Positions 8,826 to 37,716 of a stretch of DNA of 51,841 nucleotides are shown here, piece by piece. Position 1 is the stretch's first letter. The number at the start of each line of letters is the position of its first letter. The notes below the pieces were generated by a model. That model had not been told where the DNA came from. It was given only the letters and a program-made list of their open reading frames with translations, and did no database searches. The translations under genes were made by a program, and so were the position numbers. The stretch comes from an archaeon (GTDB taxonomy: Archaea > Nanobdellota > Nanobdellia > Pacearchaeales > GW2011-AR1): NCBI GenBank assembly GCA_043811855.1, contig JBDRMT010000039.1, forward strand, positions 1 to 51,841. The letters are read 5' to 3'.

Positions 8826-9761
8826 ATGGCAGAGAAAATATATGATATAAAGAGCTTAGGAGAAGTTAGGGAGAAGTTTGATGTAGTTGAGCTATCAAGA
8901 AAAATAAAGAAGCAAGGAGACGTTTTAATCCTTTCTAATGAGCTAAAAATTAAACCGAGAGTTATGAGCTTAGCTGTTGATGAGGGAAGAATCTTATCTC
9001 TTTTTTCAGGTATTCATAAGAGTAAAGCAGGGGTTTTGGCTAGATTGAGAACAGATAGAGAATTAATTAAATTTTCTAAAAAATATGATATTTATAATAT
9101 ATCTGTTCGAGATTTAATAAAATTAATTAATGAATGGAACAAGGATATTCAGAATAACCCTTTAATATTCCTTAGTCAAGAAGAACATGATTTGATTATT
9201 GGTAGTTTGTTAGGAGATGCAAGTATAAGACAAAGAGAGAAGAATTCTTGTTTTCGATTTTCTCATTCAATCAAACAAAAATATTATTCAGAACATAAGA
9301 GAGACATTTTAAAGAAATTTGGAATAACAGAGTTTAGAGAAGTTAAGAGAAAAATAAAAGATAATTTTATCTATGCTATTGATTTTTCTACTAGAACCCA
9401 TCCTGCTTTTAATTATTATAGAAATTTATTTTATAAAGATAGAAGGAAGGTTGTTAGTAAGGAATTATTAAATCAGTTAAATCCTAGAAGTTTGGCTTTT
9501 TGGGTTTGTGATGATGGAAGTTATAGTAGAACTCAAGGATATATTATTTTATGTACAAATTCTTTTAGTTTAGAAGAACATGAATTGATGAAAGAATTTT
9601 TTAATGATAGATTTGGATTGGATCCAACAATTGGTTTTAGAGATAAAAAATATTATTATTTAAGATTTAAAAAAGAAGATTCAGAGAAACTAATTAAGAT
9701 TATAAAACCTTTTATACCTAATTGTATGCAATATAAAATTGGAGGAGAGAATGGTAGATAA
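8826..9761 (+). CDS. Free-standing LAGLIDADG homing endonuclease (two-motif, LAGLIDADG_3-like) with an N-terminal extra domain
   Basis: 311 aa. Motif 1 is LIIGSLLGDASI and motif 2 is LAFWVCDDGSY. Its 3' end overlaps the gyrB ATG (9751) by 11 nt. Confidence 0.8.
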   Translation: MAEKIYDIKSLGEVREKFDVVELSRKIKKQGDVLILSNELKIKPRVMSLAVDEGRILSLFSGIHKSKAGVLARLRTDRELIKFSKKYDIYNISVRDLIKLINEWNKDIQNNPLIFLSQEEHDLIIGSLLGDASIRQREKNSCFRFSHSIKQKYYSEHKRDILKKFGITEFREVKRKIKDNFIYAIDFSTRTHPAFNYYRNLFYKDRRKVVSKELLNQLNPRSLAFWVCDDGSYSRTQGYIILCTNSFSLEEHELMKEFFNDRFGLDPTIGFRDKKYYYLRFKKEDSEKLIKIIKPFIPNCMQYKIGGENGR

Positions 9762-12700: not shown

Positions 12701-12939
12701 GATTATTAGCAAAGTTAGGTGGTAAAGCTGATGTTCAAAGATTTAAAGGTTTAGGAGAGATGAATGCTCAGCAGTTATGGGATACTACTATGGATCCTAA
12801 GAAAAGAATTTTAAAGAAAATCCATATTGATGATGCTGTTATTGCTGATGAGACATTTACAATGTTAATGGGAGATGTGGTAGGTCCTAGAAGGAAGTTT
12901 ATTGAAACAAATGCTAATATTGCAGAGGTGGATATATGA
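9751..12939 (+). CDS. gyrB: DNA gyrase subunit B, interrupted by an intein
   Basis: It has GLEAVRQRPSMYIG, HHLVYEVVDNSIDE (GHKL ATPase), EGDSAAG|intein|SSKMARDKEFQAILPLKGKILNVEK (Toprim), IMTDADVDGQHI and KGLGEM. I start it at the ATG at 9751, preceded by ggaggaga. The track begins at a TTG at 9739. Confidence 0.95.
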   Translation: MVDKKTDYTAKNIKVLQGLEAVRQRPSMYIGSTGKDGLHHLVYEVVDNSIDECLAGFCTIVEVTINKDGSVTVKDNGRGIPVDMHSTYKKSAVEVALTKLHAGGKFEKSAYQISGGLHGVGVSVVNALSIKLSVKVCRDGKIHQQEYKIGKPNYSLKVVGKCGKDETGTEITFYPDKDIFSTLDFDFAVLRKRIQEIAFLNPVKITLKDEKHGKKEVFHYTGGLIEFINHINKSKGVLHKPIYFKRQENSTIVEVALQYTDSYNENIFGFVNTINTTEGGTHVSGFKTALTRAINDYVAKKGLLKNEKLSGDDTREGLTAIINIKMSEPQFEGQTKTKLGNSEMKGLVDSLVYVAFSEFLEENPSVSNKIGQKVVASAKARSAARKARDLVRRKNAMGGLSGLPGKLSDCSSKKFERTELYIVEGDSAAGCFSGETEVVLVDGRSISFKQLVKEDSEGKDNFCYTIKNNGTIGIGKIKYPRVTKENTDVIKIVLDNNKEIICTPNHKFMLRDGKYKEAKDLTKEDSLMPLNRKISKIGGRITIDGYEMVWDNKKKLWIFTHLLADDYNLENEVYDKKQGDSRHHINYNKLNNNPNNIVRIKREDHLLHHAEHLEKVLHRDDVKEKARQAHKTPEYREKIKNWRRQPEVKEMFSNISKNLMKDEKYKKNLMKNYINFYNSDEEYRKANNKRLNDAQKKYWSESENIKKASEKVRKFFEENPDAKEYLSSLAKEQWKDEALIIWRREKTREQWTPEFREKRKIAYNKTYYKKTIKLMKEVVEEFGDLNNFDEIRINKGDRTILSMKTFSSRFFEDSPLDMLESVKNYNHKIKNIFKLNEKIDVYDLEVEDTHNFALASGVFVHNSSKMARDKEFQAILPLKGKILNVEKSNPTKALSSEEIINLITAIGTGVKENFDLKRLRYNKVIIMTDADVDGQHIMTLLLTFFYRYIPELIENGNIYVAVSPLFRVRKKKDYYVYSDDELKRLLAKLGGKADVQRFKGLGEMNAQQLWDTTMDPKKRILKKIHIDDAVIADETFTMLMGDVVGPRRKFIETNANIAEVDI
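11041..12336 (+). mobile_element. GyrB intein (432 aa) with an HNH-type endonuclease domain
   Basis: It runs from Cys1 CFSGETEVV to the terminal VFVHN, followed by the +1 Ser. Block B is CTPNHKF. The HNH-like stretch is GDSRHHINYNKLNNNPNNIVRIKREDHLLHHAEH (about 11490-11590), followed by K/E/W-rich repeats. It is in frame with both exteins. Confidence 0.9.
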
Positions 12940-14277: not shown

Positions 14278-17200
14278 ATGGTAGATGAAGAAGAACAAGA
14301 AACATTAGAAGAGGATAAAGAAGATGAAATAATTGAAGAAGAAAATGAAAATAATGGAGATTCTAATGGAAATGGAAATGGTAATGGAAAAGGAAATGGG
14401 GTTGAAATAGAACATTTAGAAAGAACAGATTTAAATTTAAAAGATTTAGATGAAAATAGAGTTTTAGGAAGTGAGATTACTCATGAAATGAAAAAAGCAT
14501 ATATTGATTATGCTATGAGTGTAATTGTTAGTCGTGCATTGCCTAGTGTTGAAGATGGATTAAAACCAGTCCATAGAAGAATATTATATGCAATGAAGGC
14601 TATGGGGTTGGAAAAGGGAATGACTAAGAAAAGTGCTAGAATTGTTGGAGATACAATGGGTAAGTTTCATCCTCATGGTGATATGGCTATTTATGATTCA
14701 ATGGTTAGAATGGCTCAACCTTTTTCATTAAGATATCCTTTGGTTCATGGACAGGGTAATTTTGGTTGTTTTACAGCAGATACAAAGGTTAAACTTGTTG
14801 ATGGAAGAAATTTATCTTTTATAGATTTGATAAAAGAGAATAAAGAAGGTAAAAGAAATTTTACTTATACTATTAATGCAGATAAAAGAGTTTGTATTGC
14901 TGAAATAAAAAATCCAAGAAAAACTAAGATTAATACAGAGATTATTAAGGTTATTTTAGATAATGGAGAGGAAATTAAGTGTACTCCCAATCATAAATTC
15001 ATGTTAAAGGAGGGTAGTTATAAAGAAGCTCAGTTTTTAAAATCTGGAAATTCTCTAATGCCTGCTTATTTTAGATTATCTACTAAAGAGGATAGTCATA
15101 AGGCAGTGGGATATAATATGGTGTTTCAACCTCAATCAGATTCATGGGATTTTACTCATATTTTATCTGATCAATGGAATCTTAATGATAATATCTATCA
15201 AAAATCAACAGGTAGAATTAGACATCATATAGATTTTAATAAATTAAATAATAATCCCGATAATATTAGGAGAATGAATTGGAAAGAGCATTGGCAAACT
15301 CATTATAATTTTACTTCTGAAAAACATAAAAATGATCCAGAATATAGAAAAAAACTAGCAAAAGGTAGGGAAGAATTTTGGAATAATAATGATAATAGAG
15401 AAGCTTATTCTAAAAGGATGTCAGAGAGAAATCTTAAAAATTGGAAAAAAAAGGATTATAGAGATAAGATGAAAATAACTTTAAGTGAAGTTAATAGAAA
15501 ATATTTAGAAGAACATCCTGAAAGAATTGAAGAGATTAGAAGAACAGCTTCAATTACTTTTAGTAAGATGTGGAAGATTTCTAAGTATAGAGATTTGTTT
15601 AATAAGAAGATTGTTGCAAGTAATAAAAGACGAAAAACTAATCTTACAGGAAAAAGGAAGTTTTTGAATATATGTAATTATATGAAAAGTAATAATCTTT
15701 TATTAACTAAAGAAAATTATGAGAAAGTGAGGGTTGAGGTTTTTGGAGGAAAGAATTTTACAACTTGGGATTTTGGATTAGAGAAATATTATGAAGATGA
15801 TAAAAATTTATTATTATGTGAAATAAACAAAAATCATAAGGTTGTAAGTATTGAATTTTTAAATGAATTTACAGATGTTTATGATTTAACAATTGATAAT
15901 AGTCATAATTTTGCTCTTGCTTCAGGAGTTTTTGTTCATAATTCAATGGATGGAGATAGTGCTGCAGCATCAAGATATACAGAAGCTAAACTTGCAAAAA
16001 TTTCTATTGAATTATTACAAGATATTGATAAAGAAACTGTTAAATTTGTTCCTAATTTTGATAATTCACTAAAAGAACCTGTTGTTTTGCCTGGAAAATT
16101 ACCAAATTTACTAATAAATGGAAGTTCAGGAATTGCAGTTGGTATGACTACAAATATTCCACCTCATAATTTAGTTGAAGTTTGTGATGCAATAACTGCT
16201 GTTATAAATAAGCCTAAAATTACAACAGATGAGTTAATGGATATAGTTAAAGGTCCTGATTTTCCTACTGGAGGAAAAATTGTTGCTGAAAATCTAAAAG
16301 ATCTTTATGAAAAAGGAAAGGCTGGTTTTGTTATTAGGGGAAAAGTTACAACAGAAGAAAAAAAGAATAAAGAATTAATTGTTATAACTGAAATTCCTTA
16401 TCAAGTTAATAAATCAGATTTAGTTAAGCAGATTGCTGAACTTGTTAGAGATAAGAAGCTTTCTGAGATTTCAGATCTTAGAGATGAAAGTAGTAAGGGA
16501 AATGTTAGAATTGTTATTGAGGTAAAAAAAGGAGCTAATAGTCAGTTTACAATAAATAGGTTATATAAATCCACTAAATTACAAACTAGATTTGATGCTG
16601 TTTTAGTTGCATTAGAAGCAGGAATTCCTAAAACTTTCACATTAAGAAAAATAATTGATTCTTATATTAAATATAGAAGAAGGATTATTAGAAAAAGAAC
16701 AGAGTTTGATTTAAGAAAAGCAGAAGATAGGTTGCATATTGTTGAGGGCTTGCTTATGGCACTAAAACAATTAGATGCTATTATTGAAACTATTAAAAAA
16801 AGCAGAACAACATTAGAAGCATCTGAAGCTTTGCAAAAGAAATTTAAACTTTCTAAAAAGCAGGCTGAAGCTATTTTAGAGATTACTTTGAAGCAACTAA
16901 CATCTTTAGAAAGAGAAAGACTGCAAAAAGAAGAAAAAGACTTAAAAGAATTAATTGAAAAGTTAAAAAAGATTTTAGCTGATGAAGGAGAGATTTTAAA
17001 AATAATTAAACTTGACTTAAGTGAGTTAAAAAGAAATTATGGAGATAATAGAAGAAGCACTATAATCAAGACTATTAAGGAAATTAATGAAAAAGATTTA
17101 GTTCAGAAGAAAGATGTCATTATAACAATTACAGAGAAAGGTTATATTAAAAGAATGCCATTTAGAGCTTATAATGAGCAAAAGAGAGGAGGAAGAGGAG

Positions 17201-18075
17201 TTATAGGAGCTGAGTTGACAAGTGAGGATTTTGTTAAAAAATTAATTAGTTGCTCAACTCATGATTATTTATTATTATTTACAGCTCGTGGAAGAGTATT
17301 TTGGTTAAAAGCATATAAAGTTCCTGAAACTCAGAGATATGGTAAAGGACAGGCAATTGTTAATCTGTTAAGTATTAAGGATGATAGTATTACTAATGTA
17401 ATTGCTGTTAAGGAGTTTAAAGATTATTTGTTTATGGCTACTAGGAAAGGACAGGTTAAGAAAATTAAGTTAGAATTGTTTTCTAAACCAAGAAATGCAG
17501 GTGTTAGAATAATTAATCTTCCAAATGATAATAGTGATGAAGTTGTTGGGATTAAAGAAGTTAAGGGTAAGCAAGAAGTAATGTTAATAAGTGAGAAAGG
17601 TCAGGCTATTAGATTTAATTCAGATGATGTTAGAGATATGGGAAGAGCAAGCTATGGTGTTACAGGAATTAAGTTAGGAAAGGACGATAAGGTTGTTAGT
17701 TTGGAAATTGTTGAAGATGTTAAAGATTCTATTTTAACAATTACTCAAAAAGGGTATGGTAAAAGAAGCAGGATTGAAGATTATAGATTAACAGGAAGAG
17801 CTGGTAAGGGAGTTATTAATCTTAAGATAGGAGAAAAAACAGGAAATGTTGTTGGAACTATTGATGTTATTGATAAAGAAAAGTTTGTTGTTTCAACTAA
17901 AAAAGGAATTGTTATAAAAACAAGTGTTAAAGATATTAGGATTATGGGAAGAGCAACATCTGGTGTTAGAATAATTAAGCTTCAGCAAGGAGATAGAGTA
18001 AGTGCTATTTCAAAGTTAATGGAAGATAAAGAAGTTGTTGAGAATGGTGATGGTGGTGAGGAAAATGGAAATTGA
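14278..18075 (+). CDS. gyrA: DNA gyrase subunit A, interrupted by an intein; acidic/NG-repeat N-terminal extension
   Basis: It has [42 protein letters not shown]|intein|[17 protein letters not shown] (catalytic Tyr motif intact) and C-terminal beta-pinwheel repeats (GGRGV, RAGKGV). Confidence 0.95.
14767..15942 (+). mobile_element. GyrA intein (392 aa) with an HNH-type endonuclease domain, paralogous to the GyrB intein
   Basis: It runs from [14 protein letters not shown] to [23 protein letters not shown], followed by the +1 Ser. Block B is CTPNHKF. The HNH-like stretch is [31 protein letters not shown] (about 15220-15303). Confidence 0.9.
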
Positions 18076-20423: not shown

Positions 20424-21992
20424 TTATTCCCACATTTCTTTTCTTATTTTAGAGATTATTAGTTTTTCCTTAGGATGATTTGCAGTTACATCTGTTACTG
20501 ATATTCTTTCTTCAGTATCAGTAAGTTGAGATTTTCTGTTTGTATAATGTTGTAAGTTAAATTCATTGTTTTGATCTAGTTTATTTTGAATTTGTTTTAC
20601 TCCAAATGGAGCATTTTTAACTAATCTTGGATAGTAGGTTTTTTGTTGATTAAATTTAATTTGAATATCTCCTGAATAAAAATCTAAGTCTTGACCTCCT
20701 GCGCTTAGTTTGTTAAAGGTTTTAAGTGCATAGATTTCTATATCTCTTCCATTAAATTCAACATCATGTTCTATGAATTTTACATATTGTCCTGAAGGAC
20801 TTCCAATTACTTCATTAAGAACCTCTTCTGCATCTATAAATGGGATTATTGAAAATATGTTTAGGAAGGATTTAAGGAGTGGGAGAGAGAGTGCATTTGC
20901 AGTGGGTATAGATGTTTGTTTTTCTGATTCTGATTTTGGTAGATTATTAGGATCATTCCCAATTGTTGCATCTGCAAATTTAAGATTAGTTATTGTTCCC
21001 GGAGGTGTTTTTCCTGCAGCTAGATTTGGAGCTACAAATGCAATATTTTTAGCATCTCCTGTATTGGTTAATGTTCCATCTTGTTGAGGTTTGTTTGCAG
21101 CTATTGCTACATCAGGAACACCTCCTCCTTGAAGTAATCCTCCACCTCCCTCACTAAGACCTATTCCTTGTTGATTTACATTTGTTTGTCCTTTTGCATT
21201 AGTTGCAATACTTTGGTAAGCTTGCATAAAAGGGGCAGAAAACGTAGAAATAAGACCCATATCGTTTCCAAATTGTCTAACAAATTGTTCTGCTCCTGCT
21301 CCAATTCCTCCAAATAATCCTCCTGCTGCAGTGCCTAAACCAGAACCTGCTGCAGCTCCAGCTCCTCCTGCACCACCACCTGACGAACCGCCCCCACTTC
21401 CACTTCCTGTAGCTCCACTTGAAATTCCACCACTTCCACCACTTACCTGACAACTTCCTCCTGCACAACCTTTAACATTATTTACACTTCCTTGCTTAAT
21501 ATCTAATAGACCTCCCTCAGGGTTTCTTATTTGATTATTTCCAGAACTATCAATACTTATTTTAGAGCCTTTGGGTATCTTATCAAGCTCTATGTTTTCA
21601 TCTCCAACTTTAAGAGTTTTAAAATCATTATTTGGAAAAGTTCCAAGGCCTTTTCCTTCTCCTGACAATTTAATATCTTTTTTAGCTAACAATTCAGTAT
21701 TATATTCTCCTGCTTGTTCATCATCCATTGGTTTTTGATGTTCAAATGCTTTTTTTGGATTTTTTGCTAAATTCTCTCCTGATTCTTTTGTACAAGGTTC
21801 TTCTCCATTACATCCAGGGCTATCATAATACTCTTTTCCATCTGTATAAACTCCTTTTCCAAAAGTTCTTAAGTCACTTGAATCAGCTGAACCACTTGAT
21901 GTTGTTGAAATAACAGATATCTGATTAATTATTATTATTAGGGATATTGATAATATTGTTGTAATAATTATTGCATTTATTTTTTTCATCAT
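20424..21992 (-). CDS. Secreted/anchored large protein 'L-A' with a Gly/Ser/Ala-rich central tract; function unknown
   Basis: 522 aa. It has an N-terminal hydrophobic signal or anchor, KINAIIITTILSISLIIII, and the tract GGSGGISSGATGSGSGGGSSGGGAGGAGAAAGSGLG. It lies 36 nt downstream of pilin-like gene P1. Confidence 0.8.
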   Translation of the reverse strand: MMKKINAIIITTILSISLIIIINQISVISTTSSGSADSSDLRTFGKGVYTDGKEYYDSPGCNGEEPCTKESGENLAKNPKKAFEHQKPMDDEQAGEYNTELLAKKDIKLSGEGKGLGTFPNNDFKTLKVGDENIELDKIPKGSKISIDSSGNNQIRNPEGGLLDIKQGSVNNVKGCAGGSCQVSGGSGGISSGATGSGSGGGSSGGGAGGAGAAAGSGLGTAAGGLFGGIGAGAEQFVRQFGNDMGLISTFSAPFMQAYQSIATNAKGQTNVNQQGIGLSEGGGGLLQGGGVPDVAIAANKPQQDGTLTNTGDAKNIAFVAPNLAAGKTPPGTITNLKFADATIGNDPNNLPKSESEKQTSIPTANALSLPLLKSFLNIFSIIPFIDAEEVLNEVIGSPSGQYVKFIEHDVEFNGRDIEIYALKTFNKLSAGGQDLDFYSGDIQIKFNQQKTYYPRLVKNAPFGVKQIQNKLDQNNEFNLQHYTNRKSQLTDTEERISVTDVTANHPKEKLIISKIRKEMWE

Positions 21993-22028: not shown

Positions 22029-22811
22029 TTATGGTGTTAGGAGCTCTTCTGTTGGAAGAGGATATTTATTTAAAAATTCAAATAAGTAAGGTTGTTCCAT
22101 TGTCTTATTTTCAAGTATCATTACTAAAGTAGAATCTTCTTCAAAAGCTATGAAATCAACATAAAGATTATCTTGTTTTGCCATTTCAGTTATACAGTTG
22201 ATACACATTAAATCTGCATCTTCTTTATGAGAATCTGTTATGTAAGTTGCTAATTTAATTATATCACTTAGTTTTGAATCTATTGTTAGTGAATGTTCTG
22301 AAAGTTCAAAAACAACTACATTATTATCATGGTTTATTTTTGTTGAAAGTGATGTTTTAAAGGTTATTTCTGATTGTTTTATTGTTGTTGTTGTTTGGGG
22401 TTCTGAAAAAGTTACTTCAAAATCTGAAAATTTAATATCTCTAATGCATGAGCCTATTTCATTATCAATAAAATTAGATAATTCAGATTCAATTTCTTGA
22501 GCTGAAGGTTGAAGAAATTCTCCTACATGATAATAATAAGGTACAAAAGTCCATTCCATGTCGTAGTAGTATTTTGGTTTGTTATAATATCCGCCTTGAA
22601 TTCCAGTTCTTATTAGTGCATCTTTAGATGTTGTTTCAAGGCAGTCAATTATAAAACCTTGTATATTATTAACAGTAGGTTGAAGTCCATGCTCTTTAAA
22701 GTAATTTAAATTATGTTCTTCTTTATCTGATTTTAGAAATACAAATAAAAGCACTATTACTACTATAATAACTGCTATTATTATGAAGATTGTTGTCTGC
22801 CCCTTTTTCAT
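22029..22811 (-). CDS. P1: class-III (type IV pilin-like) signal peptide protein, uncharacterised Cys-motif family
   Basis: 260 aa. It has MKKGQTTIFIIIAVIIVVIVLL, conserved DCLE, GIQGGYYNKP, FVPYYY, SCIRD and CINC. Confidence 0.8.
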   Translation of the reverse strand: MKKGQTTIFIIIAVIIVVIVLLFVFLKSDKEEHNLNYFKEHGLQPTVNNIQGFIIDCLETTSKDALIRTGIQGGYYNKPKYYYDMEWTFVPYYYHVGEFLQPSAQEIESELSNFIDNEIGSCIRDIKFSDFEVTFSEPQTTTTIKQSEITFKTSLSTKINHDNNVVVFELSEHSLTIDSKLSDIIKLATYITDSHKEDADLMCINCITEMAKQDNLYVDFIAFEEDSTLVMILENKTMEQPYLFEFLNKYPLPTEELLTP

Positions 22812-22835
22812 TTTTTAATAAAGAATATAGAGTAT

Positions 22836-22923
22836 TTAAGGTTTTTTGGAGGATTTTGTTATTTTTAAATAAACTTAAATTAAGGTTTTTTGGAGGATTT
22901 TGTTATTTTTAAATAAACTTAAA
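22836..22923. repeat. Perfect 44-bp tandem duplication (2 copies) in the P1/P2 divergent promoter region
   Basis: ttaaggttttttggaggattttgttatttttaaataaacttaaa occurs at 22836-22879 and again at 22880-22923. Each copy carries an AT box, tttttaaata. Confidence 0.95.
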
Positions 22924-22946
22924 TATGGGTTTTTGTTAGGTTTATT

Positions 22947-23729
22947 ATGAAAAGAGGACAAACTACTATTTTTATTATTTTAAGTATTGTTATTATAGCA
23001 GTAGTTGTAGTTTTGATTTTTGTTATTAATAATAAAGAAAAAACTGTTGATGATTATTTTTTAAGTTCTGAAGTTAAAGCAATGATGGATTCTTTAATAG
23101 TGGAAGTACAAGGATGTGCTGAAGAAACTTCAATAAATGCTTTAGATACTATTGGGTTTCAAGGAGGTTATTATAATAAACCTGAAAAAGCTTTTGAAGT
23201 AAGTGATCCTGATGAATTAGAGATTTTGGATTTTATTCCATATTATTATTATGAAGGACAGATTTTAGTTCCAACAAGAAATAATGTTGAAAATGAACTT
23301 TCAAAAGCAATTGATTCAGAATTAAGGGATTGTTTAGATAATATTGATTCTGAGCTTGATTTTAGTTATGGTAATTCAAAGAGTTTGGTTGAAATTAAAG
23401 ATAAAGAAGTAATTATTACTATTAAACAAGATATTAAAATTCAGAGAGAAGAACATACAACAACTTATAGGTTAGAAGATAATCCTATTGTTTTAGAGTC
23501 GGGATTAAAAGATATTTTAGAACTTGCTGATTATATGACTGAATCTCGTAAAGAAGAACCAAATAAAGATTGTGTTAGTTGTATTGCAGATGTTGCAGAA
23601 GAAAAAAACCTTTATATTGAAGTTACAAATTTTGATGAAGTTACAACACTTGTTACAATTTATGAAGAATATACAGAACAACAGCAATTGTTAATGTTTT
23701 TAAATAAATTTAAAGAAGAGGATTTGTAA
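22947..23729 (+). CDS. P2: class-III signal peptide protein, same family as P1
   Basis: 260 aa. It has MKRGQTTIFIILSIVIIAVVVV, GCAE, GFQGGYYNKP, FIPYYYY, DCLDN and CVSC. Confidence 0.8.
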   Translation: MKRGQTTIFIILSIVIIAVVVVLIFVINNKEKTVDDYFLSSEVKAMMDSLIVEVQGCAEETSINALDTIGFQGGYYNKPEKAFEVSDPDELEILDFIPYYYYEGQILVPTRNNVENELSKAIDSELRDCLDNIDSELDFSYGNSKSLVEIKDKEVIITIKQDIKIQREEHTTTYRLEDNPIVLESGLKDILELADYMTESRKEEPNKDCVSCIADVAEEKNLYIEVTNFDEVTTLVTIYEEYTEQQQLLMFLNKFKEEDL

Positions 23730-25628
23730 ATGAATAAGATTATTTTGATTATTTGTATGGTGGTTGTTTTGTTAGCTGGATTTATAGTTATGAATCAGGC
23801 AGCAGAAACTACTTCAAATTTTGATGTTAATGATATTAATACTTGGCCTGATAATGGGGGTAAGGTTATTGAAGAAGTTAAAAAAGATTCTAATAAGGTT
23901 AATAGTGTTTTAGCTCAAGCATCTGTAGAGCAGAAAAATAGTTTATCTTATAATATTGTAAATCAAGGTAGAGAATCAAAAATTAATATAGTAGGTTTTG
24001 GTTCATCTGATCTTTTATTTGATAAAGATGGTTTTTTAACAAATGGAAATTCTAAATTAGATTTAAGAAATATCCCAAATGGTGTTAATGAGGTTATTTA
24101 TAATGAAAAAGAAAAGGCTTTTACATTTAAAACTGAAAAAGGGTCAATGGAAGTAAAACAAGGTACTTTAAATGAGGATATGAGTTATACTGTTAATACT
24201 GGAACTCTTCATTTACCAGACGATAAAACAGAAGATAGGATGGTTGATGTTAAATGGAATGGATTAGGAGAAGTTAAACAAACAGGAAAAAATACTTTTG
24301 AATTAAGTGGAGATGCAAAATTTAATGTTGGTAATTTAGATGTTGATTTAAATAAAGAAAGTGGAAGTGTTAAATTTTTTACTTCTGATTTTGGAGATCT
24401 TCATGTTCTTGGAACTAATCTAGATATAAAATTTGATGAGATTTCAAAAGTTTCTTTTCCAGAGGGTGTAGAAACTGAGTTTTTTGTTGGACCTGGTTTG
24501 CCAATTGAGGCAAAAGAATCTTATGTTAAGATAGATTCACCAAAGACAGGAAGAGAAGAATTTCTTGTTAATGATGAAAGAGGAAATCCTAAAGTAGTTT
24601 CAAAGGGAAATTTATTTTCAGAAGATTCATTAAATCGTTATAATAATTTTGTTGATGAAGATATTAAATTAGAAATAGTTGGTGAAGATATAAGTTTAGA
24701 ATTTTTAACAGATAGTCCTAATAAAGAAGCTAAAGTTAATGGAGAAAATATTATAATAAAAAATCAAGGTGTTACTTATGAAATAAAAGGTGCTGAAAAT
24801 GCTAAGGGTGAATGGGTATCTCAGATTTCTTTTAATCATGTTCCTGAAAAAGGACATAATATGGATGTAATTAATCTACAAAATGAAGATGCTAGTGTAT
24901 ATAGAATAAGGCCTAGGATTGAGAATAAAGATTATTATACTTTAACTACATCAACTCCGGACCAGGGTGTTGAAGACCAGGGTGTTAAATCTGCTAATGG
25001 GAGATATGAGCTTGTTCCTGTTGTTGGAATTAGTAAAGACTATGAAAAAGAAGGAAAAACAATAAAAATATATGCAGGGCATGTTTTATTAGATAATGAG
25101 TATGCAAATTTACCTTCTGGACTTAGTAGAGAAGATTTTTTAACTCAAATAGCACCTCTTTCAAAAGGACTTTTAATTGAATTTGGTCCAATAATAGGTT
25201 TAAATGAAGAGCATATAGTTGGTAGTTTGGTTAAGAAAGTGGAAACTTATCAGACTCAGGGCTTATTAAGTAAAAGTGAGGCAGATGAACTTGTTGCATT
25301 TCTTCCAACAGCAATTCCTTTTAAGAATTATAAAACAGAGAGTCTTTTAATGATATCAGGAACAGGTAATTCTCCTACAGTAATTGGTTCTTCATATTTA
25401 GGAACAAGTGCTCCTAATGTTATTCAATTTGCTGAAAATCCTGTAGAGAAAGTTGAGTCTGTTTCATATTTTAAAGGTATGCAACCTAATTATCAGCAAA
25501 GAGAAGCTAGTGCAGTGCAAATAGCTGCATTAAATAAGTTTATTAATTTAAGAGTAGCTGAACCATCAATTTCAGATCCGTTGTATGAGAACTATAAGAA
25601 GCGTCAGAATTTAGTAACTTTTAAATAA
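23730..25628 (+). CDS. Secreted large protein 'L-B'; function unknown
   Basis: 632 aa. It has the signal or anchor MNKIILIICMVVVLLAGFIV and starts immediately after the P2 stop. Its N-terminal ETTSNFDVNDINTWPDNG is shared with L-G (ETNPNFNLDDSNTWLVNG). Confidence 0.85.
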   Translation: MNKIILIICMVVVLLAGFIVMNQAAETTSNFDVNDINTWPDNGGKVIEEVKKDSNKVNSVLAQASVEQKNSLSYNIVNQGRESKINIVGFGSSDLLFDKDGFLTNGNSKLDLRNIPNGVNEVIYNEKEKAFTFKTEKGSMEVKQGTLNEDMSYTVNTGTLHLPDDKTEDRMVDVKWNGLGEVKQTGKNTFELSGDAKFNVGNLDVDLNKESGSVKFFTSDFGDLHVLGTNLDIKFDEISKVSFPEGVETEFFVGPGLPIEAKESYVKIDSPKTGREEFLVNDERGNPKVVSKGNLFSEDSLNRYNNFVDEDIKLEIVGEDISLEFLTDSPNKEAKVNGENIIIKNQGVTYEIKGAENAKGEWVSQISFNHVPEKGHNMDVINLQNEDASVYRIRPRIENKDYYTLTTSTPDQGVEDQGVKSANGRYELVPVVGISKDYEKEGKTIKIYAGHVLLDNEYANLPSGLSREDFLTQIAPLSKGLLIEFGPIIGLNEEHIVGSLVKKVETYQTQGLLSKSEADELVAFLPTAIPFKNYKTESLLMISGTGNSPTVIGSSYLGTSAPNVIQFAENPVEKVESVSYFKGMQPNYQQREASAVQIAALNKFINLRVAEPSISDPLYENYKKRQNLVTFK

Positions 25629-25649: not shown

Positions 25650-27443
25650 ATGGAGAAAAAGAGGAGTAAAAATATAATAGCATTTATATTGGTTTTTTTA
25701 GTAGTGGTTATCTTGTTAAGCAGTTTTTTAATAGCTCAGGAAACAACAGGTGAGTATGCTGCAACAACTCCTGAAGAATTGTTAACTAAATATAATAGTA
25801 ATGATCCTAATGATCAAAGTTTTATAATTACTAATTGGAAGGGATTTTCAAGTGAAACAAGAACAAAATTTTTAAGTGACTTGTCTGGGAAAACATTTGT
25901 AGATTTTGGAAGTAATGACCTTAAATTTGAATATGATATTGTTGGGAGTTATGCAAGTATTAGCGATGGAAATATCAAGATTAATTTGAATAGAGATAAA
26001 TTAAATGAAAATATTGTTTCTATTACTTATGTTACAAAAACTATTGATAGTGAAAGCAGGTTAGTTTATGAGTTTGATAAAGGAAAAATTTCAATAGGTT
26101 CTGGAGAAGTAGATAAGGATTTAAGATATACAAATAAAAATGTTCCAACAAGTTTAGAAGATAAAGGTAAAATGTTGCTTATGATTGGAGAAGGTGGAAA
26201 TATTGATATTGATTTTGAAGGAAAAATTTCCTTTAGTAAGGATGATAAAGTGATAGTTGGAAATAGGGAGTTTTTGGTAAATGATAAATCTGAATCAAGT
26301 TCAATTGAGGTTGTTGAGGGAAGTTATTTTAGAGGAGATAATTTATTAGTTAGTACTGATGTTGTTGATATTAAAACTCCTGCTGGAAAATCAACTGATT
26401 TGATTTTTAAAGAAGGAGATTATAAAAAACTTGATAGTTATGTTCAAGTTTTTGATTCTGAAATTAAAGAAGGAGACGAAATTAAAAAATATTTAAATTT
26501 TAATGGCGAAGATATTGATATTAAATTAAAAAAAGAAGGAATGGGAGATAACAAGGTTTATATTGAGGGTGAAGGAAAAGGAAAAGGAGTAAAGATAATT
26601 AATGGAGAAGCTGTAACTGTTAGGAAAAGTGATGATAAAGGCAATCAAATATGGAATTATGAACGTGTTTATAAAAAAACAGATATTGATACTGTTTATA
26701 AGGTTAGTTCTGATAAAGTTATTGAAACAACAGATGGCGTTATAAGAGTTATTTCTAGTAAGGGGGAGTATCATTGTTATGGTCCTGATTGTATTTTGAA
26801 TACTGGTGCAAGGGTTATTAATGCTGAAATAGGGGTTCATGAAGATCATAAAAAACTTAAGAAATTATCCTTAGAAGAGTTTAAGCAAGAAATAGATAAA
26901 TATCCCAAGGAAATAAAGACTATTACATTATTAGGGGGAGATTTAGAAAAGATTGATGAAATAACTGGAAAAAGTGAATCTTATTTATCAACCAAAGATC
27001 AGATTGTTTATAAAGCACATGGTTATATCCTGAAAAAAGATTTAATAGATGGGCATATTGAGAATGCAGTAAAATATAAGTTAAGTGAATTAGATAGAAA
27101 AGTTTTAAGAGAAGTTTTAACTAAAACATTTACAGATTCAGATTATCCCCCCTATACTGAGATTATCTTAAAAACAGGAGATTATAGTTTAGATAAAGGT
27201 TATTTTGATAATCCTTTAGTGAGTATTAGAAGATATATTGGAACTAATATAGAAAAAGGTTGGGTATTTAGTCATGTTGTTTATGAAGAAAATCAGTTTC
27301 AAAAACCTAGTGCAGTAAAAATTTTAGATGAAAACGAGAAAAGAGTTTTTACAGAATATCTGAGATTAGGCACTTCATATGTTGATCCAGATACAAAAAT
27401 TTCTAAAAAAGAAGAATGGTATCAAAAACTAAATAACCCTTGA
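25650..27443 (+). CDS. Secreted large protein 'L-C'; function unknown
   Basis: 597 aa. It has the signal or anchor NIIAFILVFLVVVILLSSFLIAQE, in the same operon as P2 and L-B. Confidence 0.85.
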   Translation: MEKKRSKNIIAFILVFLVVVILLSSFLIAQETTGEYAATTPEELLTKYNSNDPNDQSFIITNWKGFSSETRTKFLSDLSGKTFVDFGSNDLKFEYDIVGSYASISDGNIKINLNRDKLNENIVSITYVTKTIDSESRLVYEFDKGKISIGSGEVDKDLRYTNKNVPTSLEDKGKMLLMIGEGGNIDIDFEGKISFSKDDKVIVGNREFLVNDKSESSSIEVVEGSYFRGDNLLVSTDVVDIKTPAGKSTDLIFKEGDYKKLDSYVQVFDSEIKEGDEIKKYLNFNGEDIDIKLKKEGMGDNKVYIEGEGKGKGVKIINGEAVTVRKSDDKGNQIWNYERVYKKTDIDTVYKVSSDKVIETTDGVIRVISSKGEYHCYGPDCILNTGARVINAEIGVHEDHKKLKKLSLEEFKQEIDKYPKEIKTITLLGGDLEKIDEITGKSESYLSTKDQIVYKAHGYILKKDLIDGHIENAVKYKLSELDRKVLREVLTKTFTDSDYPPYTEIILKTGDYSLDKGYFDNPLVSIRRYIGTNIEKGWVFSHVVYEENQFQKPSAVKILDENEKRVFTEYLRLGTSYVDPDTKISKKEEWYQKLNNP

Positions 27444-28803: not shown

Positions 28804-31533
28804 TTAATGCATATAATAATTAGGTGAATAAACCTGGTATCCTGAGGGTGAGGAGGGATTAGATATTTTTTGTTTTACTAATGTTTTAACAGTAGATTCA
28901 ATTCCATATTTGATTGCATCTGCATTTCTTTTTGCATATAAACTTTGACTTATTCCTTGGTAATATCCTCCATAAACATTAATTCCAATAGATCTCCCAA
29001 ATCTAGTATCACGAGGGTTAATATAAAAATTACCATTATTATCTATTCCACCTGAACCTGCAATAACAGGCAAGACATTTCCAATAAGAGGTCCTGCAAT
29101 AGGATTAATATTATAAGTATTTCCACCTGCTCTTATTTGGTATACATTGTTGCTTGCATCTTTTGTAAATTGCAGATAATTACTCGGGTTAGCTTTAATA
29201 AAACTTCCAATATTGCTTAGTTCTTGTTTAACAAATGAACTTACATCTGATAATCCAATCCCTTGTTCTGCTAGTTGTCCTTGCAAATTTTTATTATTTA
29301 ATACTGTATCTGTTGTAATTTGTCTTATTATATCATTATTAAATTGTGTTTGTCCTCCTGAAAAAGAACTTAAAGAACTGCTTAATCTGCTTGATGTAAC
29401 TGATAAATCTATATTTCCTGAATTTAATACTTGATTATATTTTACATAAAGACTATCTCTAAGTTGGGTTAATTCTTTTCTTTCTTTGTCTGACCATCCA
29501 TCTTGTTGATATTGATAATATAATTTTCTATATTCTTCATTAGCTTGTGCTTCATAAGCTTTAGCTAATGCAATAGAATTACTATCAACCTTATAATCTG
29601 CAGTTAATACATTTTCATAACTTCCTTTATAACCACTATCACCCCAAAATAAAAACCTGTAACCATAACTTACTCCTCCTCCAGCATCAACTTTATATTC
29701 TCCTTTTACACTTTGAAGATCAGTTAAACCCCTAATCCATTTACCATTAGAATTCATATTTACTCCCACTACATTAAGGTTTCCATATTGGTCTGAAAAA
29801 ATATTAATTGCTTGCATTTCATTGAAATTTTTATTAAGAAGATTAAAATTAATATCCTGAAATGAAGTTTCTTTATTATTAATTTTTGCAGGCAGAACAT
29901 ATCCATATGAATTTGCTTGGGCGATATTAACTAGTTTTCCATACGAATCAGTAATTTGTAAACTTCCACCATACATTTCAATATTTTTTAATTTTTTTGC
30001 ATCTTGATTATTTAATTGAATATATAATATTGCTTCAGGATGTTGATTTAAACTACTTAATAATGGATTGTTTAAATTTTTTGAAATAGAGTCAACAGTA
30101 TTGCTAAATGTATTTGCTAAATCTCCTGTAGCACCCACTCCTATGTTTGCATGTCTTAAGACTTTATCTATTACAAATAATCCACCTTCAGAGGTTAGTG
30201 ATTTGATAAGGGGATGTTCTTGAGGCAGGCCAAGTTCTGAAGCAAATTCTGATTTTATTTTTCCTTCTATTGTTTCTAAAGCACTTTTTGCTAAATCAAT
30301 TCCAAATCCAAGCCTTTCTGCAGTTGCAACTGCATTTCGAGCAGTAGTTAGGCTTGATTTAGCAAGCTGAATTTTGCCACTAATACCTGAAATTTTTTCA
30401 TTTAATTTACCCATATAAGAATTAATTTCATTAAATTTTGTTTTAGTATCTCCTAAAGCTCCTCCAGAAACTCTTTCTACATCAGCTTTAGTTATTAGAT
30501 TAGTTTCTAAATCAATCATGATTTTTGATCCTTTTGCTTTATCATAACTTTCGCTATCATAAGTTACTGTAAAGTCTTTTCCAAAAAAATATTTTGAACC
30601 TTCTTTATTTTTATACATATTATTTATTTTTGTTAATTTACCCTTTGAATCAAAAGTAAGTTCACCATCTTTAAGAGCATATAATAGATTCCCTTTATTG
30701 TCATACTCTCCATTAGGATGTCTAAAAACTGAATAAGATTCTTTTTTCGAGTTAGTAAATTCTGCAAAGTTTGTATTATCATTTGCAATACCATCTTTGT
30801 TTTTACCATATTCAAAACTTAATTTAACTTCATTAGTTGATGCATCTATTTTTAAACTTCCTAATCCATTCCATTTTCCTGAAAAAGGATCTTTTTGATC
30901 TACTAATCCATTTTCTCCTACTCTTCCAATTTGCCCTGAGTCTGGATTAAAATAAAAACCTTTTTGAGATTGATCAACTGTTAGGTCTAGAGTGTTTCCA
31001 TTTTGTTTTTTGAAAACTAAAGAACTCGTGCTTCCTTCTTTTTTATATTCAATTGAGGTTATTTTGTTATTCGGATTCTTTTTATTGAACTCTACAACCT
31101 TATCCATTTGGAAAAATCCCTTGCTATTTCCAATGACATTTTTATCTCCAAAAAGAACTGCTTCATTACCCATATTTTTAAAATCTACATTATAATGTTT
31201 TCCATAATTTTGCATAAATGAGTTTTTATCTTGTTCACTTAATCCTTCTAAAAGTGCTCTTTTTTGATCTGTAGTTAAATCCTTTTTCCATTGATTCCAA
31301 AATTCTTTTGTGTCAGAGTTAATATTAGAAATAATTTGTGATTTTTGTTCTGGAGATAGGTTTTCAAGATTCTTTATTAATTCTGGACTTAAAACTCCAT
31401 TATCTTCTAAAGTAAGTAATCCATCTCTAAGATCTTCATCATCATAAGTTGCATTAACTAAACTTAAACATAAGATTATGCTTATTGCAATTAATACTAG
31501 AATATTTTTATTGTTCATTGAAACTTGATACAT
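28804..31533 (-). CDS. Secreted large protein 'L-F'; function unknown
   Basis: 909 aa. It has the signal peptide NILVLIAISIILCLSLVNA|TYDD and overlaps the 3' end of P3. An alternative start is the Met at 31518. Confidence 0.85.
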   Translation of the reverse strand: MYQVSMNNKNILVLIAISIILCLSLVNATYDDEDLRDGLLTLEDNGVLSPELIKNLENLSPEQKSQIISNINSDTKEFWNQWKKDLTTDQKRALLEGLSEQDKNSFMQNYGKHYNVDFKNMGNEAVLFGDKNVIGNSKGFFQMDKVVEFNKKNPNNKITSIEYKKEGSTSSLVFKKQNGNTLDLTVDQSQKGFYFNPDSGQIGRVGENGLVDQKDPFSGKWNGLGSLKIDASTNEVKLSFEYGKNKDGIANDNTNFAEFTNSKKESYSVFRHPNGEYDNKGNLLYALKDGELTFDSKGKLTKINNMYKNKEGSKYFFGKDFTVTYDSESYDKAKGSKIMIDLETNLITKADVERVSGGALGDTKTKFNEINSYMGKLNEKISGISGKIQLAKSSLTTARNAVATAERLGFGIDLAKSALETIEGKIKSEFASELGLPQEHPLIKSLTSEGGLFVIDKVLRHANIGVGATGDLANTFSNTVDSISKNLNNPLLSSLNQHPEAILYIQLNNQDAKKLKNIEMYGGSLQITDSYGKLVNIAQANSYGYVLPAKINNKETSFQDINFNLLNKNFNEMQAINIFSDQYGNLNVVGVNMNSNGKWIRGLTDLQSVKGEYKVDAGGGVSYGYRFLFWGDSGYKGSYENVLTADYKVDSNSIALAKAYEAQANEEYRKLYYQYQQDGWSDKERKELTQLRDSLYVKYNQVLNSGNIDLSVTSSRLSSSLSSFSGGQTQFNNDIIRQITTDTVLNNKNLQGQLAEQGIGLSDVSSFVKQELSNIGSFIKANPSNYLQFTKDASNNVYQIRAGGNTYNINPIAGPLIGNVLPVIAGSGGIDNNGNFYINPRDTRFGRSIGINVYGGYYQGISQSLYAKRNADAIKYGIESTVKTLVKQKISNPSSPSGYQVYSPNYYMH

Positions 31534-32415: not shown

Positions 32416-34392
32416 TTAATATTCATAAACAGGTTCATATTCTTTAAGTTGGAAGTTATTTGTCATCACACTATTTATATCTTTAACAGGCATCCAAATG
32501 TCTTGACTTTCACGATATTTAAAAAATTGACCTTTTATAAATGCTACTCTTGTTCCACTAGTTAGAGTATATGAATAATCTGCATTACCTAAATTTTTAG
32601 TTTCTGTCTTTCCATTTTCCCTAACTTTAACTTTAATATTTTCATGAGTTTCTAAAGATGTTGAAAGATCTTCTCCTATAACTTGTCCATAATATGTTTT
32701 TAACATTTCGCTTTGTTTTATTTTTTCACCACTAGTAATTATTGAATTTTTTATTTCTTTTTTTATTCCTGTTTCAGAAACAGTTTCAAGCTGAACACCT
32801 GAAGTTGTACTTTCTAGTGCTATTCTTGTTTCTCCCAGAGTTGTAGGAATTTCTGTTTGTTCTTGCATTTTTTGAGGGCTACTATCCATAACCTCTCTTA
32901 CTTCTGGGCTGATTGATCTTTCACTGCCTCCTGTTGATATTGTTTTTCTAGGTTCTTCAGATGGTGCATCTTCTTGATTAGTAACAAGAGTAAATTCTTC
33001 AGTTCTATCTACATTAACATAATCTTCTTCATCTATATCTTCATCATAAAGAGTAATTATTGGTTCTTGATTTTTTTTGATGGTTACATCATTTTCACCA
33101 ACACTTAAACTATTTTCTTTTCCAACATTAAATTTTATACCTTTACTTGCTAATCTTTCATCTATCTTTGTACTGACTATTCCTTTGATAGCTACCCCAT
33201 CTTCATATATTGATTTATCTGTAATACTTATAACTCTTTCACCATCCTGAGCTATGTAATCTCCTGTTAGATATTTTCCATTTAAATCTAAAGTTGCTAT
33301 TCCATCAAGTTCTATATCTGGTATTTTAACACCCTCTATAGTGCTTCTTAGTGCTGCATTTTTACCTCTAACCCTCATTATTCCATCTTCTATCATACTA
33401 ACCTCAAAAAATCCTTGTTTTTTAGCAGTGATAAAAGAATTATCTAAATCTATTATTGCATCTCCCCATCCTTTTATACTATTTTTTTCAATAAAGACTA
33501 TACCTTTTGCTCCTAAATCAACCCTTATATCTCTTTCTATGCCATCTTTACCTATGTTTCCTTTTGCAACCCAGTCTTTGTTTTCTTTCATTTCAAGATA
33601 AGTTCCAGGATTAGCTGCCATATATCTATCATTGTCTATTTCGTAAGTCATATAAGAACCTTCAGAAGCATCTACAAGACCAATACGTTTTATATTCATT
33701 GGGACATTTTTTAATGGAAGAATATGTTCTTTTCCTGAAGAATCTGTTATAATCATTCTTTCAAAATCATTATCATTCTTATATTGTAATTTTATGTTTT
33801 TTGATATTTGACTTCCATCAGGATTTAGGAGATAAACATTTTTATCCATTAATGATGATAAGAATTCTTGTTTTTGTACATTATCTATTTTGTTTAATAA
33901 TTGTTCACTTTCTAGAATTTCTAGAAATTCTTGAGTTCTTGAAACTGCAAAAGGGTCTGAAGATATTCCTTTATCAGATTCTTTTGTTATTTCAAGTATT
34001 TTTTTTAGATTATTTCCTGCATTTTCAATATTTCCAGATTCTTTCATTTGTTGAATTATTATTTTTTTATAATCTTTTCCTATTGCAGTATAAAAGGCAG
34101 TTTTATCTTTAAGAGTTAGTTCTTTATTATTTATAACTTCTTGAAAAAGGTCATGTTTTTTTTGATGGCTGATTTGTGCAAATTGATCATCTAACCAATA
34201 AACATCTTGAGGAGCATTATTCTTAACTTTACTAACAATTAATTCTAAATTTGTCTGAGATAATTCACCATTAACAAGCCAGGTATTAGAATCATCTAGA
34301 TTAAAATTAGGATTTGTCTCGCTATTAACAACTACAAAGCTAGTTAAAAGTATTAGAGATATTATGGTTATTAAAAAAATTCTTTTTATCAT
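32416..34392 (-). CDS. Secreted large protein 'L-G'; function unknown
   Basis: 658 aa. It has the signal or anchor MIKRIFLITIISLILLTSFVVV and an ATGA overlap with the P4 stop. It shares an N-terminal motif with L-B. Confidence 0.85.
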   Translation of the reverse strand: MIKRIFLITIISLILLTSFVVVNSETNPNFNLDDSNTWLVNGELSQTNLELIVSKVKNNAPQDVYWLDDQFAQISHQKKHDLFQEVINNKELTLKDKTAFYTAIGKDYKKIIIQQMKESGNIENAGNNLKKILEITKESDKGISSDPFAVSRTQEFLEILESEQLLNKIDNVQKQEFLSSLMDKNVYLLNPDGSQISKNIKLQYKNDNDFERMIITDSSGKEHILPLKNVPMNIKRIGLVDASEGSYMTYEIDNDRYMAANPGTYLEMKENKDWVAKGNIGKDGIERDIRVDLGAKGIVFIEKNSIKGWGDAIIDLDNSFITAKKQGFFEVSMIEDGIMRVRGKNAALRSTIEGVKIPDIELDGIATLDLNGKYLTGDYIAQDGERVISITDKSIYEDGVAIKGIVSTKIDERLASKGIKFNVGKENSLSVGENDVTIKKNQEPIITLYDEDIDEEDYVNVDRTEEFTLVTNQEDAPSEEPRKTISTGGSERSISPEVREVMDSSPQKMQEQTEIPTTLGETRIALESTTSGVQLETVSETGIKKEIKNSIITSGEKIKQSEMLKTYYGQVIGEDLSTSLETHENIKVKVRENGKTETKNLGNADYSYTLTSGTRVAFIKGQFFKYRESQDIWMPVKDINSVMTNNFQLKEYEPVYEY

Positions 34393-37014: not shown

Positions 37015-37716
37015 CTAGAATAGTTTGTGAAAAGCGAAATAAACCTCTGAAGGATTTTTATTGTTTAGACTTGTATGAGGTCTAAAATGATTATATCTCA
37101 TCCTGAATAGTTCAGGATCATTATTACAGAAAGGCATTTCATTAATCATTGTTTGGAATAATCTTTCCACTTTACCAGAAGTTGTAGGACTATGAATTGC
37201 ACTTCTGATATGTTTAATTCCTCTTCTTCTACACCACCTATCAAACTTACTATGTTTACTTTTTAATCCGAAAACCGCACCATTATCTGTTAATATTTCT
37301 CGCGGTTTTCCATGAATTTTTATTATTTTATCAAACACATTAGTTATTATCTCAGTAGATATTTTATTAAGAGGAGTCATAGCAAGAGAGTATCTCGAGC
37401 AATCATCAATAATTGAAAGAACATATTTATCCTTGACTTTCTGGTCGCTTGTATCTGCTTGCCATAATGAATTGGGATGTTCTCTCTGCCAACGAATATA
37501 TTTTATTCTCTTCTTCTTATTTGGATTTGAATTAGATAGATTATTTTTTATTAATATCCTCTTTATTGTAGAAACTGATACTTCATTTATAATTGAATTA
37601 ATCTTTTCTGCTCCCCATCCAGTCTTACTCCTTAGATGGATTATCTTATTCTCTATATCTCCGGTAATTTTAGTAGAATATTTTTTGGCTTTCTTGAAGA
37701 ATCCATCAAATCCCAT
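37015..37716 (-). CDS. IS transposase OrfB (integrase core / rve DDE domain)
   Basis: 233 aa. It has the DDE-type signatures WQADTS, LTDNGAVF and HSPTTSGKVERLFQTM. It lies in the -1 frame relative to OrfA, with a 64-nt overlap. Confidence 0.85.
   Translation of the reverse strand: MGFDGFFKKAKKYSTKITGDIENKIIHLRSKTGWGAEKINSIINEVSVSTIKRILIKNNLSNSNPNKKKRIKYIRWQREHPNSLWQADTSDQKVKDKYVLSIIDDCSRYSLAMTPLNKISTEIITNVFDKIIKIHGKPREILTDNGAVFGLKSKHSKFDRWCRRRGIKHIRSAIHSPTTSGKVERLFQTMINEMPFCNNDPELFRMRYNHFRPHTSLNNKNPSEVYFAFHKLF

Follow-up and report, generated by a model that had tools for sequence, protein, structure and literature searches.

A DPANN-specific family of exported proteins with a class III-like N-terminus and large secreted operon partners

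The Woesearchaeota and Pacearchaeota, two abundant and uncultivated groups of archaea, presumably live attached to other cells. To our knowledge, most of their large surface proteins are unannotated. Here we analyse five related genes, P1 to P5, in a 51,841-nucleotide (nt) stretch of DNA from a Pacearchaeales archaeon (contig JBDRMT010000039.1 of assembly GCA_043811855.1; the whole stretch is called the window below), and we find that they belong to a very large DPANN-specific family of exported proteins, most of whose genes are followed directly by a gene for a large secreted protein. Given the pilin-style signal of the family, its unmatched outer domain and the co-transcribed secreted partner, each pair is probably a module on the cell surface that makes contact with other cells. 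In our preferred reading, which we rate about as likely as not, the family protein serves as a pilin-like carrier or anchor and displays its cognate secreted protein. What appears new is a widespread DPANN family that has no match in PDB or BFVD and has a conserved operon partner; class III signals and pilin-like proteins are of a known kind.

Two of the genes, P1 (22029-22811, minus strand, 260 amino acids (aa)) and P2 (22947-23729, plus strand, 260 aa), are divergently oriented with a 135-bp spacer between them, and three more are P3 (31508-32362, minus strand, 284 aa), P4 (34389-35222, minus strand, 277 aa) and P5 (36224-36976, plus strand, 250 aa), a divergent orphan member. A sequence-only reading of this DNA had reported five copies sharing an MK[KR]GQTT N-terminus, QGG and PYYY motifs and a cysteine pattern, and all of its open reading frames (ORFs) and quoted motifs were found as written; its one slip is the consensus [FI][IV]P[YF]YY for P1 to P4, which holds as quoted elsewhere and fails at its first residue in P3, which reads SIPFYY. 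The interval that it gave for the family, 22029-23729, contains P1 and P2, and P3, P4 and P5 lie outside it. What it observed is confirmed, and its interpretation is supported in part. P1 can serve as the reference copy, with its MKKG/QTT leader (the slash marks the putative cleavage site), hydrophobic helix, C57 and C122, QGG, PYYY and CINC. Pairwise identities of 24-42% and BLASTP E-values from 8e-69 (P1/P4) to 4e-4 (P3/P5) identify the five, by sequence, as true paralogues. P5 is the outlier and has neither the CxxC, PYYY and His195 nor a partner gene. An rve-family transposase gene (37015-37716, minus strand) lies directly after this orphan, degenerate copy, and an insertion of the mobile element may have removed the P5 partner.

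That the resemblance of the five copies is not a matter of chance was borne out when a profile built from them retrieved 180 database relatives, all from assemblies named "Nanoarchaeota archaeon" or "archaeon". An exhaustive search with a 45-sequence profile then gave 7,683 representative clusters (50% identity) at E≤1e-3, a number that falls to 4,820 at E≤1e-10 and to 806 at E≤1e-30; almost all members are 240-290 aa long. A scan of GTDB genomes yielded 326 loci, of which 80 were kept; they come from Woesearchaeota, Pacearchaeota or Nanoarchaeota assemblies and one Diapherotrites. Related loci are cited below as L001 to L079, and 1.1 Mb of related loci was scanned for pilus machinery. Several family copies per assembly are the rule in these related genomes. 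An apparent bacterial member, L040 (JAFCCB010000047.1, labelled Candidatus Dojkabacteria), lies on a contig that is probably mis-binned DPANN DNA, because all its flanking ORFs best match Woesearchaeota or Nanoarchaeota loci at 35-52% identity, and no viral relative was found in IMG/VR viral contigs. When the five paralogues and distant relatives were scanned against Pfam, NCBIfam and PHROG, the only matches were sub-threshold ones on the transmembrane helix, and together with the PDB and BFVD searches these scans assigned the domain to no known non-pilin family, an outcome that leaves the earlier proposal of a pilin-like protein standing on this point. The 180 relatives are all annotated as "hypothetical" except two (P0070 and P0074), which carry the JGI name 'flagellar basal body-associated protein FliL'. 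We regard that name as a mislabel; nothing backs it but a hit below threshold (E=0.015; 15 bits, where the cut-off is 179) that covers only the transmembrane helix of one relative. A curated profile model of the family is warranted, to replace labels that are now "hypothetical" or a wrong FliL.

The sequence-only reading had missed the main functional clue, which is the large secreted partner encoded next to most family genes. In the window, B1 (20424..21992, minus strand, 522 aa) starts 36 nt after P1 and has a signal peptide, a Gly-rich region and no C-terminal anchor; its residues ~190-250 form a long Gly/Ser/Ala-rich low-complexity tract (GGSGGISSGATGSGSGGGSSGGGAGGAGAAAGSG...). B2 (23730..25628, plus strand, 632 aa), also with a signal peptide, follows the P2 stop codon with no gap and precedes, in the same operon, a second large secreted ORF, B3 (25650..27443, plus strand, 597 aa), a distant paralogue of B2 (E=8e-6). 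On the minus strand the cassettes run P4, B5, P3, B4; the start of B4 (28804..31533, minus strand, 909 aa, with signal peptide) overlaps the end of P3 by 26 nt, and that of B5 (32416..34392, minus strand, 658 aa, with signal peptide) overlaps the P4 stop by 4 nt. Defining a partner as a same-strand downstream ORF of at least 300 aa, we found one after 94 of the 116 family genes (81%) that have enough downstream sequence. The partners are 328-2,558 aa long (median 708 aa), gene-partner gaps are 10 nt or less in 67/94 and 4-nt overlaps occur in 19; an N-terminal Sec-type hydrophobic signal is present in 91/94 partners and a C-terminal hydrophobic anchor in none of the 94. We found no description of this operon partnership with a large secreted protein in the literature searched. 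The whole block of the window lies between gyrA and TruB, where the close relatives L001, L004 and L005 have one to three cassettes, and the more distant L003 has a lone family gene in an unrelated neighbourhood. Clustering of neighbours across the related loci revealed only housekeeping genes as further conserved neighbours (TruB, ribosomal proteins, TFIIB).

Family subclade predicts partner type, and family gene and partner have co-diversified: in 80 of the 94 cases the partner of the nearest family relative falls into the same supercluster, against a mean of 19 and a maximum of 33 in 1,000 shuffles. The partners themselves are very diverse. They form at least four superclusters, and profile comparison joins the window-type clusters through their N-terminal 100-390 residues, with the N-terminal regions of A-type partners being too divergent for a usable alignment. 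Recognisable Pfam domains were present, at the C-terminus or internally, in 8 of the 44 partners scanned, namely YkuD L,D-transpeptidase with PG_binding_1, SLT lytic transglycosylase with CAP, Trypsin_2 (three partners) and thioredoxin (three partners); the remaining 36/44, all window partners included, had no Pfam match, and PDB sequence searches of four window partners gave none either. Since these archaea are murein-less, the peptidoglycan-directed domains hint at bacterial hosts or prey. Some partners are Cys-rich, and cluster-1 partners have a common C-terminal motif, HPxxKLIIxxxRxEMW. Individual partners with peptidoglycan-directed (YkuD + PG_binding_1, SLT), trypsin-like or thioredoxin domains are L076:10789-13218, L020:16597-18843 and L006:1424-3622, and the giant partner L075:11818-19494 carries SLT and CAP domains. 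A long family form of ~620 aa, homologous over residues 2-198 only, occurs in L046, L048, L051, L058, L059, L062, L064, L065, L067, L068, L070, L072, L075, L076 and L078, and it always stands ahead of a giant partner of 1,500-2,558 aa. An immunity-protein role for the family was considered and rejected, the family being conserved while the C-terminal domains of the partners vary, and the family gene lying upstream.

The promoters mark family gene and partner as one transcription unit. A TATA-like 8-mer stands at -29..-22 of all five ATGs, which gives independent support for the called start codons: CTTAAATA ahead of both P1 (22833..22840, minus strand) and P2 (22918..22925, plus strand), TTTATATA ahead of P3 (32384..32391, minus strand), TTTATAAG ahead of P4 (35244..35251, minus strand) and TTTAAATA ahead of P5 (36195..36202, plus strand), those of P3 and P5 being TATA boxes proper. 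With a strict definition (TTWAWAWW ending 20-22 nt upstream of the ATG), a box was found in 81/123 (66%) of the family genes outside the window, and this spacing is the register expected of leaderless archaeal operon heads. The same box occurs in 115/515 (22%) of the other genes in related loci and in only 2/94 partner genes, so that the partner genes are taken to be co-transcribed with the family gene. Among those 515 other genes (≥150 aa; window and L001-L079), TTWAWAWW ends exactly 21 nt before the ATG in 93, a pattern that suggests wide use of leaderless mRNAs by these DPANN. The conserved codons for FLNK(Y/F) that end P2 (TTTTTAAATAAA) themselves resemble a TATA box just upstream of B2.

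The N-terminus is the best-conserved part of the family protein. Over 270 relatives, the motif [KR]-[G/A/S]-Q-[VTIL]-[TS]-[IVL]-F was present in 251; numbered from the putative cleavage site, position -2 is K or R in 219 of these 251, position -1 is G in 119 and A in 85, +1 is Q, +3 is T or S and +5 is Phe in 227, and the leader ends, with its small -1 residue, at residues 4-14 in most members. Conservation was assessed over 377 non-redundant members. Gln5 is kept in 361 of the 362 aligned at this position, and the helix opens with 10 residues (Q-x-T-I-F-I-I-x-A-I) that rank with the best-conserved columns; the information content is 2.68 bits per column for residues 1-8, 2.46 for residues 5-27 and 1.92 for the ectodomain, and the search for related loci likewise singled out the N-terminal peptide for its conservation, the highest of any stretch. 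The Gln is followed by about 21 hydrophobic residues, within a helix predicted to span residues 3-40 of P1. The class III (type IV pilin-like) layout that had been recognised from the sequence, that is, a short basic leader, a small residue at -1, an invariant Gln and a conserved ~21-residue hydrophobic helix, is thus upheld. A conserved N-terminal helix is a hallmark of type IV pilin-like proteins and is not shown by simple signal anchors. In Methanococcus maripaludis, substrates of the prepilin peptidase EppA have a leader of 5-13 aa whose last residue is Gly; Gln is conserved at +1, and Glu stands at +5 (PMC3875500). As judged from its sequence, the family N-terminus fits such an EppA-type class III (prepilin) signal.

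Behind this helix the family protein has a domain of its own. AlphaFold2 modelled full-length P1 with a predicted local distance difference test score (pLDDT) of 91.4 and a predicted template modelling score (pTM) of 0.83, and residues 41-260 with a pLDDT of 89.8 and a pTM of 0.87. In the model the N-terminal helix 3-40 leads into helices 44-71 and 104-124 and then a sheet region of six strands, after which come two more helices (181-194 and 204-213) and, at the C-terminus, three strands; the predicted topology is N-in, C-out, which would place a domain of ~230 aa outside the cell. Neither the full-length nor the domain-only model had a Foldseek match below E=1e-3 in PDB or BFVD; the best PDB matches had E=0.01-0.03 and template modelling (TM) scores of at most 0.25, and no pilin was among the top 50. 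The ectodomain therefore has no detectable relative among solved structures, pilins included; the sequence-only reading had advised a comparison with known pilins and had noted that the mature domain is much larger than a typical pilin head. Other candidate folds fared no better. NTF2-like, TcpC, SecB and LptE folds had TM<0.25. A VirB8/TcpC-like NTF2 bitopic protein was suggested by 3ub1 (TcpC; E=0.04, TM 0.13, root-mean-square deviation 20 Å), which was absent from the domain-only search. The only match in PDB sequence searches with two family profiles was the PARP14 WWE domain (1x4r; E=0.045 with one profile and 7.5e-4, over 58 residues, with the other), which was not recovered by Foldseek and was judged a chance match. 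A thioredoxin-fold oxidoreductase was rejected too, for although the CxxC stands at the start of helix 204-213, there was no thioredoxin family or fold match and the motif is absent in ~40/377 members.

Conservation within the ectodomain centres on cysteines and loops. C57 is present in 370/371 members and C122 in 374/376, exactly four Cys occur in 311/377, and the CxxC cysteines (C203 and C206) are both present in 324 members and both lost in ~40, with loss of a single one in one member only. This covariation across the 377 members agrees with the earlier proposal that the four Cys act as two pairs, and the pattern fits, at the level of sequence, two independent units, a helix-to-helix C57-C122 link and a dispensable CxxC at the start of helix 204-213. 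G73 (368/377) and G74 (374/377) are nearly as constant, and QGG, PYYY and FLNKY are invariant loop motifs. His195 is conserved in 217 members only, too few for a fixed metal ligand. The CxxC at the N-terminus of helix 204-213, invariant loops that could form an active or binding site, tight translational coupling with the partner and the Cys-richness of some partners could all be read as signs of a membrane-tethered maturation factor for the downstream protein, that is, a chaperone, a CxxC thiol-disulfide oxidoreductase or a processing enzyme in place of a structural carrier. We consider such a role improbable: the CxxC is missing from ~11% of members, P5 and the ~620-aa forms included, whose fold is otherwise retained; neither fold nor family searches matched a thioredoxin, sortase or peptidase; and duplication and co-diversification with each single substrate are not what one would expect of a general foldase.

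Less probable still is that these are ordinary major or minor type IV pilins which build a filament of themselves and stand next to genes for secreted proteins by accident. Such a role would suit the class III-like N-terminus, and there is a place for it: pili have been seen on ultrasmall groundwater cells (PMC7906910), and type IV filament (TFF) ATPases occur in 'nanoarchaea' whose cognate pilins escaped identification (PMC4858521). It does not account for partner adjacency in 81% of loci, for the operon structure or for co-diversification; moreover, the ectodomain matches no pilin in Foldseek and the family genes lie outside TFF loci.

Several observations weigh against the preferred reading of a pilin-like carrier. 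Pfam and NCBIfam scans returned no class III signal, DUF361 or archaeal flagellin/pilin N-terminal model at E≤1; position +5 is Phe, against Glu in EppA substrates; position -1 is Ser in 47 of the 251 motif-bearing members (19%); the fold has no match, as described above; and ~19% of family genes, P5 included, have no adjacent partner. In addition, no gene for a prepilin peptidase, a TFF ATPase or a platform protein was found in the 51.8-kb window or within 10 kb of 79 related loci, and two nanoarchaea are reported to have a TFF ATPase and no peptidase (Makarova et al. 2016, PMC4858521). Regular expressions for the VirB11/PilB Walker A and the GxGD A24 peptidase motif, run over the 1.1 Mb of related loci, gave two candidates, of which closer inspection made an Obg-like GTPase and an MscS channel, and a degenerate-codon scan of GTDB for GxGDVK(L/F) prepilin peptidases was uninformative, with bacterial contigs only among the matches listed. 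The literature describes TFF systems 1 (Epd-like) and 4A in DPANN genomes and class III signals on non-pilin proteins as well (bioRxiv 10.64898/2026.04.22.720090). The only canonical small archaeal pilin-like ORF in the 1.1 Mb of related loci is L056:3907-4374 (plus strand; MNNNKKG/LSTIVATLLIILL), which has no Pfam match; at least one family-bearing lineage therefore has a conventional class III substrate.

Much of this would be equally at home with an uncleaved type II signal-anchor, in which the helix is permanent and the family protein is the membrane stalk of a two-component surface complex like SlaB/SlaA that needs no pilus machinery. The predicted topology is the same as under class III processing, the partners lack any anchor, the head domain is not pilin-like, Ser at -1 and the missing Glu at +5 pose no difficulty, and the want of TFF or peptidase genes nearby, like the report of two nanoarchaea devoid of peptidase (PMC4858521), is as expected. 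Left unexplained are a Gln fixed in 361/362 members right after basic and small residues, and the fact that the helix is conserved position by position over its first 10 residues. We therefore rate a permanent anchor as a serious contender, though the less probable of the two, and retain the class III-processed carrier as the working model.

In this carrier model, the family gene is transcribed from its own promoter as a leaderless mRNA, with the next gene co-transcribed in most cases. A class III (EppA/PibD-type) peptidase would most likely cleave after the Gly, Ala or Ser, leaving the Gln as the new N-terminus, and the conserved N-terminal helix would hold the carrier in the membrane or in a type-IV-filament-like assembly. 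The ~230-aa, disulfide-stabilised domain would thereby be placed outside the cell, where it may bind the N-terminal or central region of the cognate partner, so that this partner, an adhesin or an enzyme, would be presented on the surface of the cell or on a pilus, where it can contact other cells. Several such cassettes per genome have diversified as units. An extended form of the model can be put forward only tentatively: a hitherto unrecognised, DPANN-wide host-interaction system, in which a class III-processed carrier on or in a type IV filament presents a fast-diversifying effector or adhesin (some of them peptidoglycan-active, proteases or redox proteins) to the envelope of a host or prey, and in which the family would represent the 'missing pilins' of the nanoarchaeal TFF ATPases. 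In either form, the cassettes of family gene and partner offer a concrete handle on how surface proteins of DPANN are tethered and displayed. Should the class III reading be true, it would widen the repertoire of non-pilin cargo on archaeal type IV filament machinery, and it would point to enzymes, in some DPANN, that are directed at the cell walls of bacteria.

The window is a piece of an archaeal chromosome and is rich in AT (~27% GC); its other genes encode TruB/Cbf5, an archaeosine tRNA-guanine transglycosylase, HisRS, a rhomboid protease, glycosyltransferases and intein-bearing GyrB and GyrA. Rhomboids cut single-pass membrane proteins, which makes the rhomboid (44028-44666, minus strand) an alternative candidate processing enzyme for the N-terminal helix; its gene is syntenic with the TruB/family locus in close relatives (L001 7999-8634; L005 4421-5059). 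The ORF at 39218-43993 (minus strand) encodes a protein of 1,591 aa that begins with a signal or anchor and has a Fic (AMPylase) domain at its C-terminus. This layout of a large unannotated body and a C-terminal enzyme is like that of some partner proteins, and no family gene stands ahead of the Fic gene. Both gyrB (9739-12939, plus strand) and gyrA (14278-18075, plus strand) bear inteins: gyrB has a Pfam Intein_splicing match, and gyrA, which encodes 1,265 aa where its counterpart in the syntenic locus L001 encodes 851 aa, has a Cys...HN-Ser insert. A free-standing LAGLIDADG_2 endonuclease ORF (8826-9761, plus strand) sits immediately upstream of gyrB, whose called start it overlaps.

Arrangements in which a small product is matched to a large one are known from several systems. 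In LXG polymorphic toxins of Gram-positive type VII secretion, upstream Lap targeting factors match the conserved N-terminal part of a toxin whose C-terminal enzyme varies. For the family this is an analogy only, in that a small upstream product is matched to a large, variable partner; the domain of life, the export route (Sec for the family partners) and the folds differ, and only 8/44 partners have a recognisable C-terminal enzyme domain. The Sulfolobales SlaB/SlaA pair is a two-gene unit as well, in which a smaller protein is anchored in the membrane and a large outer one has no anchor. SlaB differs from the family protein in that its anchor is a helix at the C-terminus and in that it lacks a class III-like motif, and the family has multiple divergent cassettes per genome; no homology to SlaB/SlaA was detected in PDB searches of the family.

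Nearer in N-terminal layout are the EppA-processed proteins of M. maripaludis (Epd pilins, DUF361/PF04021), which share with the family a short basic leader with a small end residue, Gln at +1, Ser or Thr at +3 and a helix of ~20 residues, and some of which are large (PMC3875500). The family differs from them in its Phe at +5, its unmatched alpha/beta fold of ~230 aa with two Cys pairs and the location of its genes outside a pilus locus. Membership of a curated pilin family is accordingly not established, the features of sequence layout being present and those of model and fold being absent. The bindosome proteins of Sulfolobales (GlcS, AraS) likewise bear a large non-pilin ectodomain on a class III N-terminus and are encoded away from TFF machinery (bioRxiv 10.64898/2026.04.22.720090); in contrast to them, the family has no solute-binding-protein fold or adjacent ABC transporter, and its constant neighbour is a large secreted protein. 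In the modular pilins PilB and PilC of Streptococcus sanguinis, a pilin N-terminus displays a functional module (PMC8179133). There the module is fused to the pilin, whereas the family would use a separate polypeptide, and we detected no homology. In bacterial minor-pilin/PilY1 tip complexes, small pilin-like proteins present a large Sec-exported, anchor-less adhesin from the same operon. The family partners have no sequence or Pfam similarity to PilY1, and here one carrier goes with one partner in a unit that is repeated several times per genome. Among archaea, a pilin-like gene in an operon with a large Sec-exported, anchor-less adhesin, as in the cassettes described here, is found with the PilY-like adhesin of TFF 4A/B (bioRxiv 10.64898/2026.04.22.720090).

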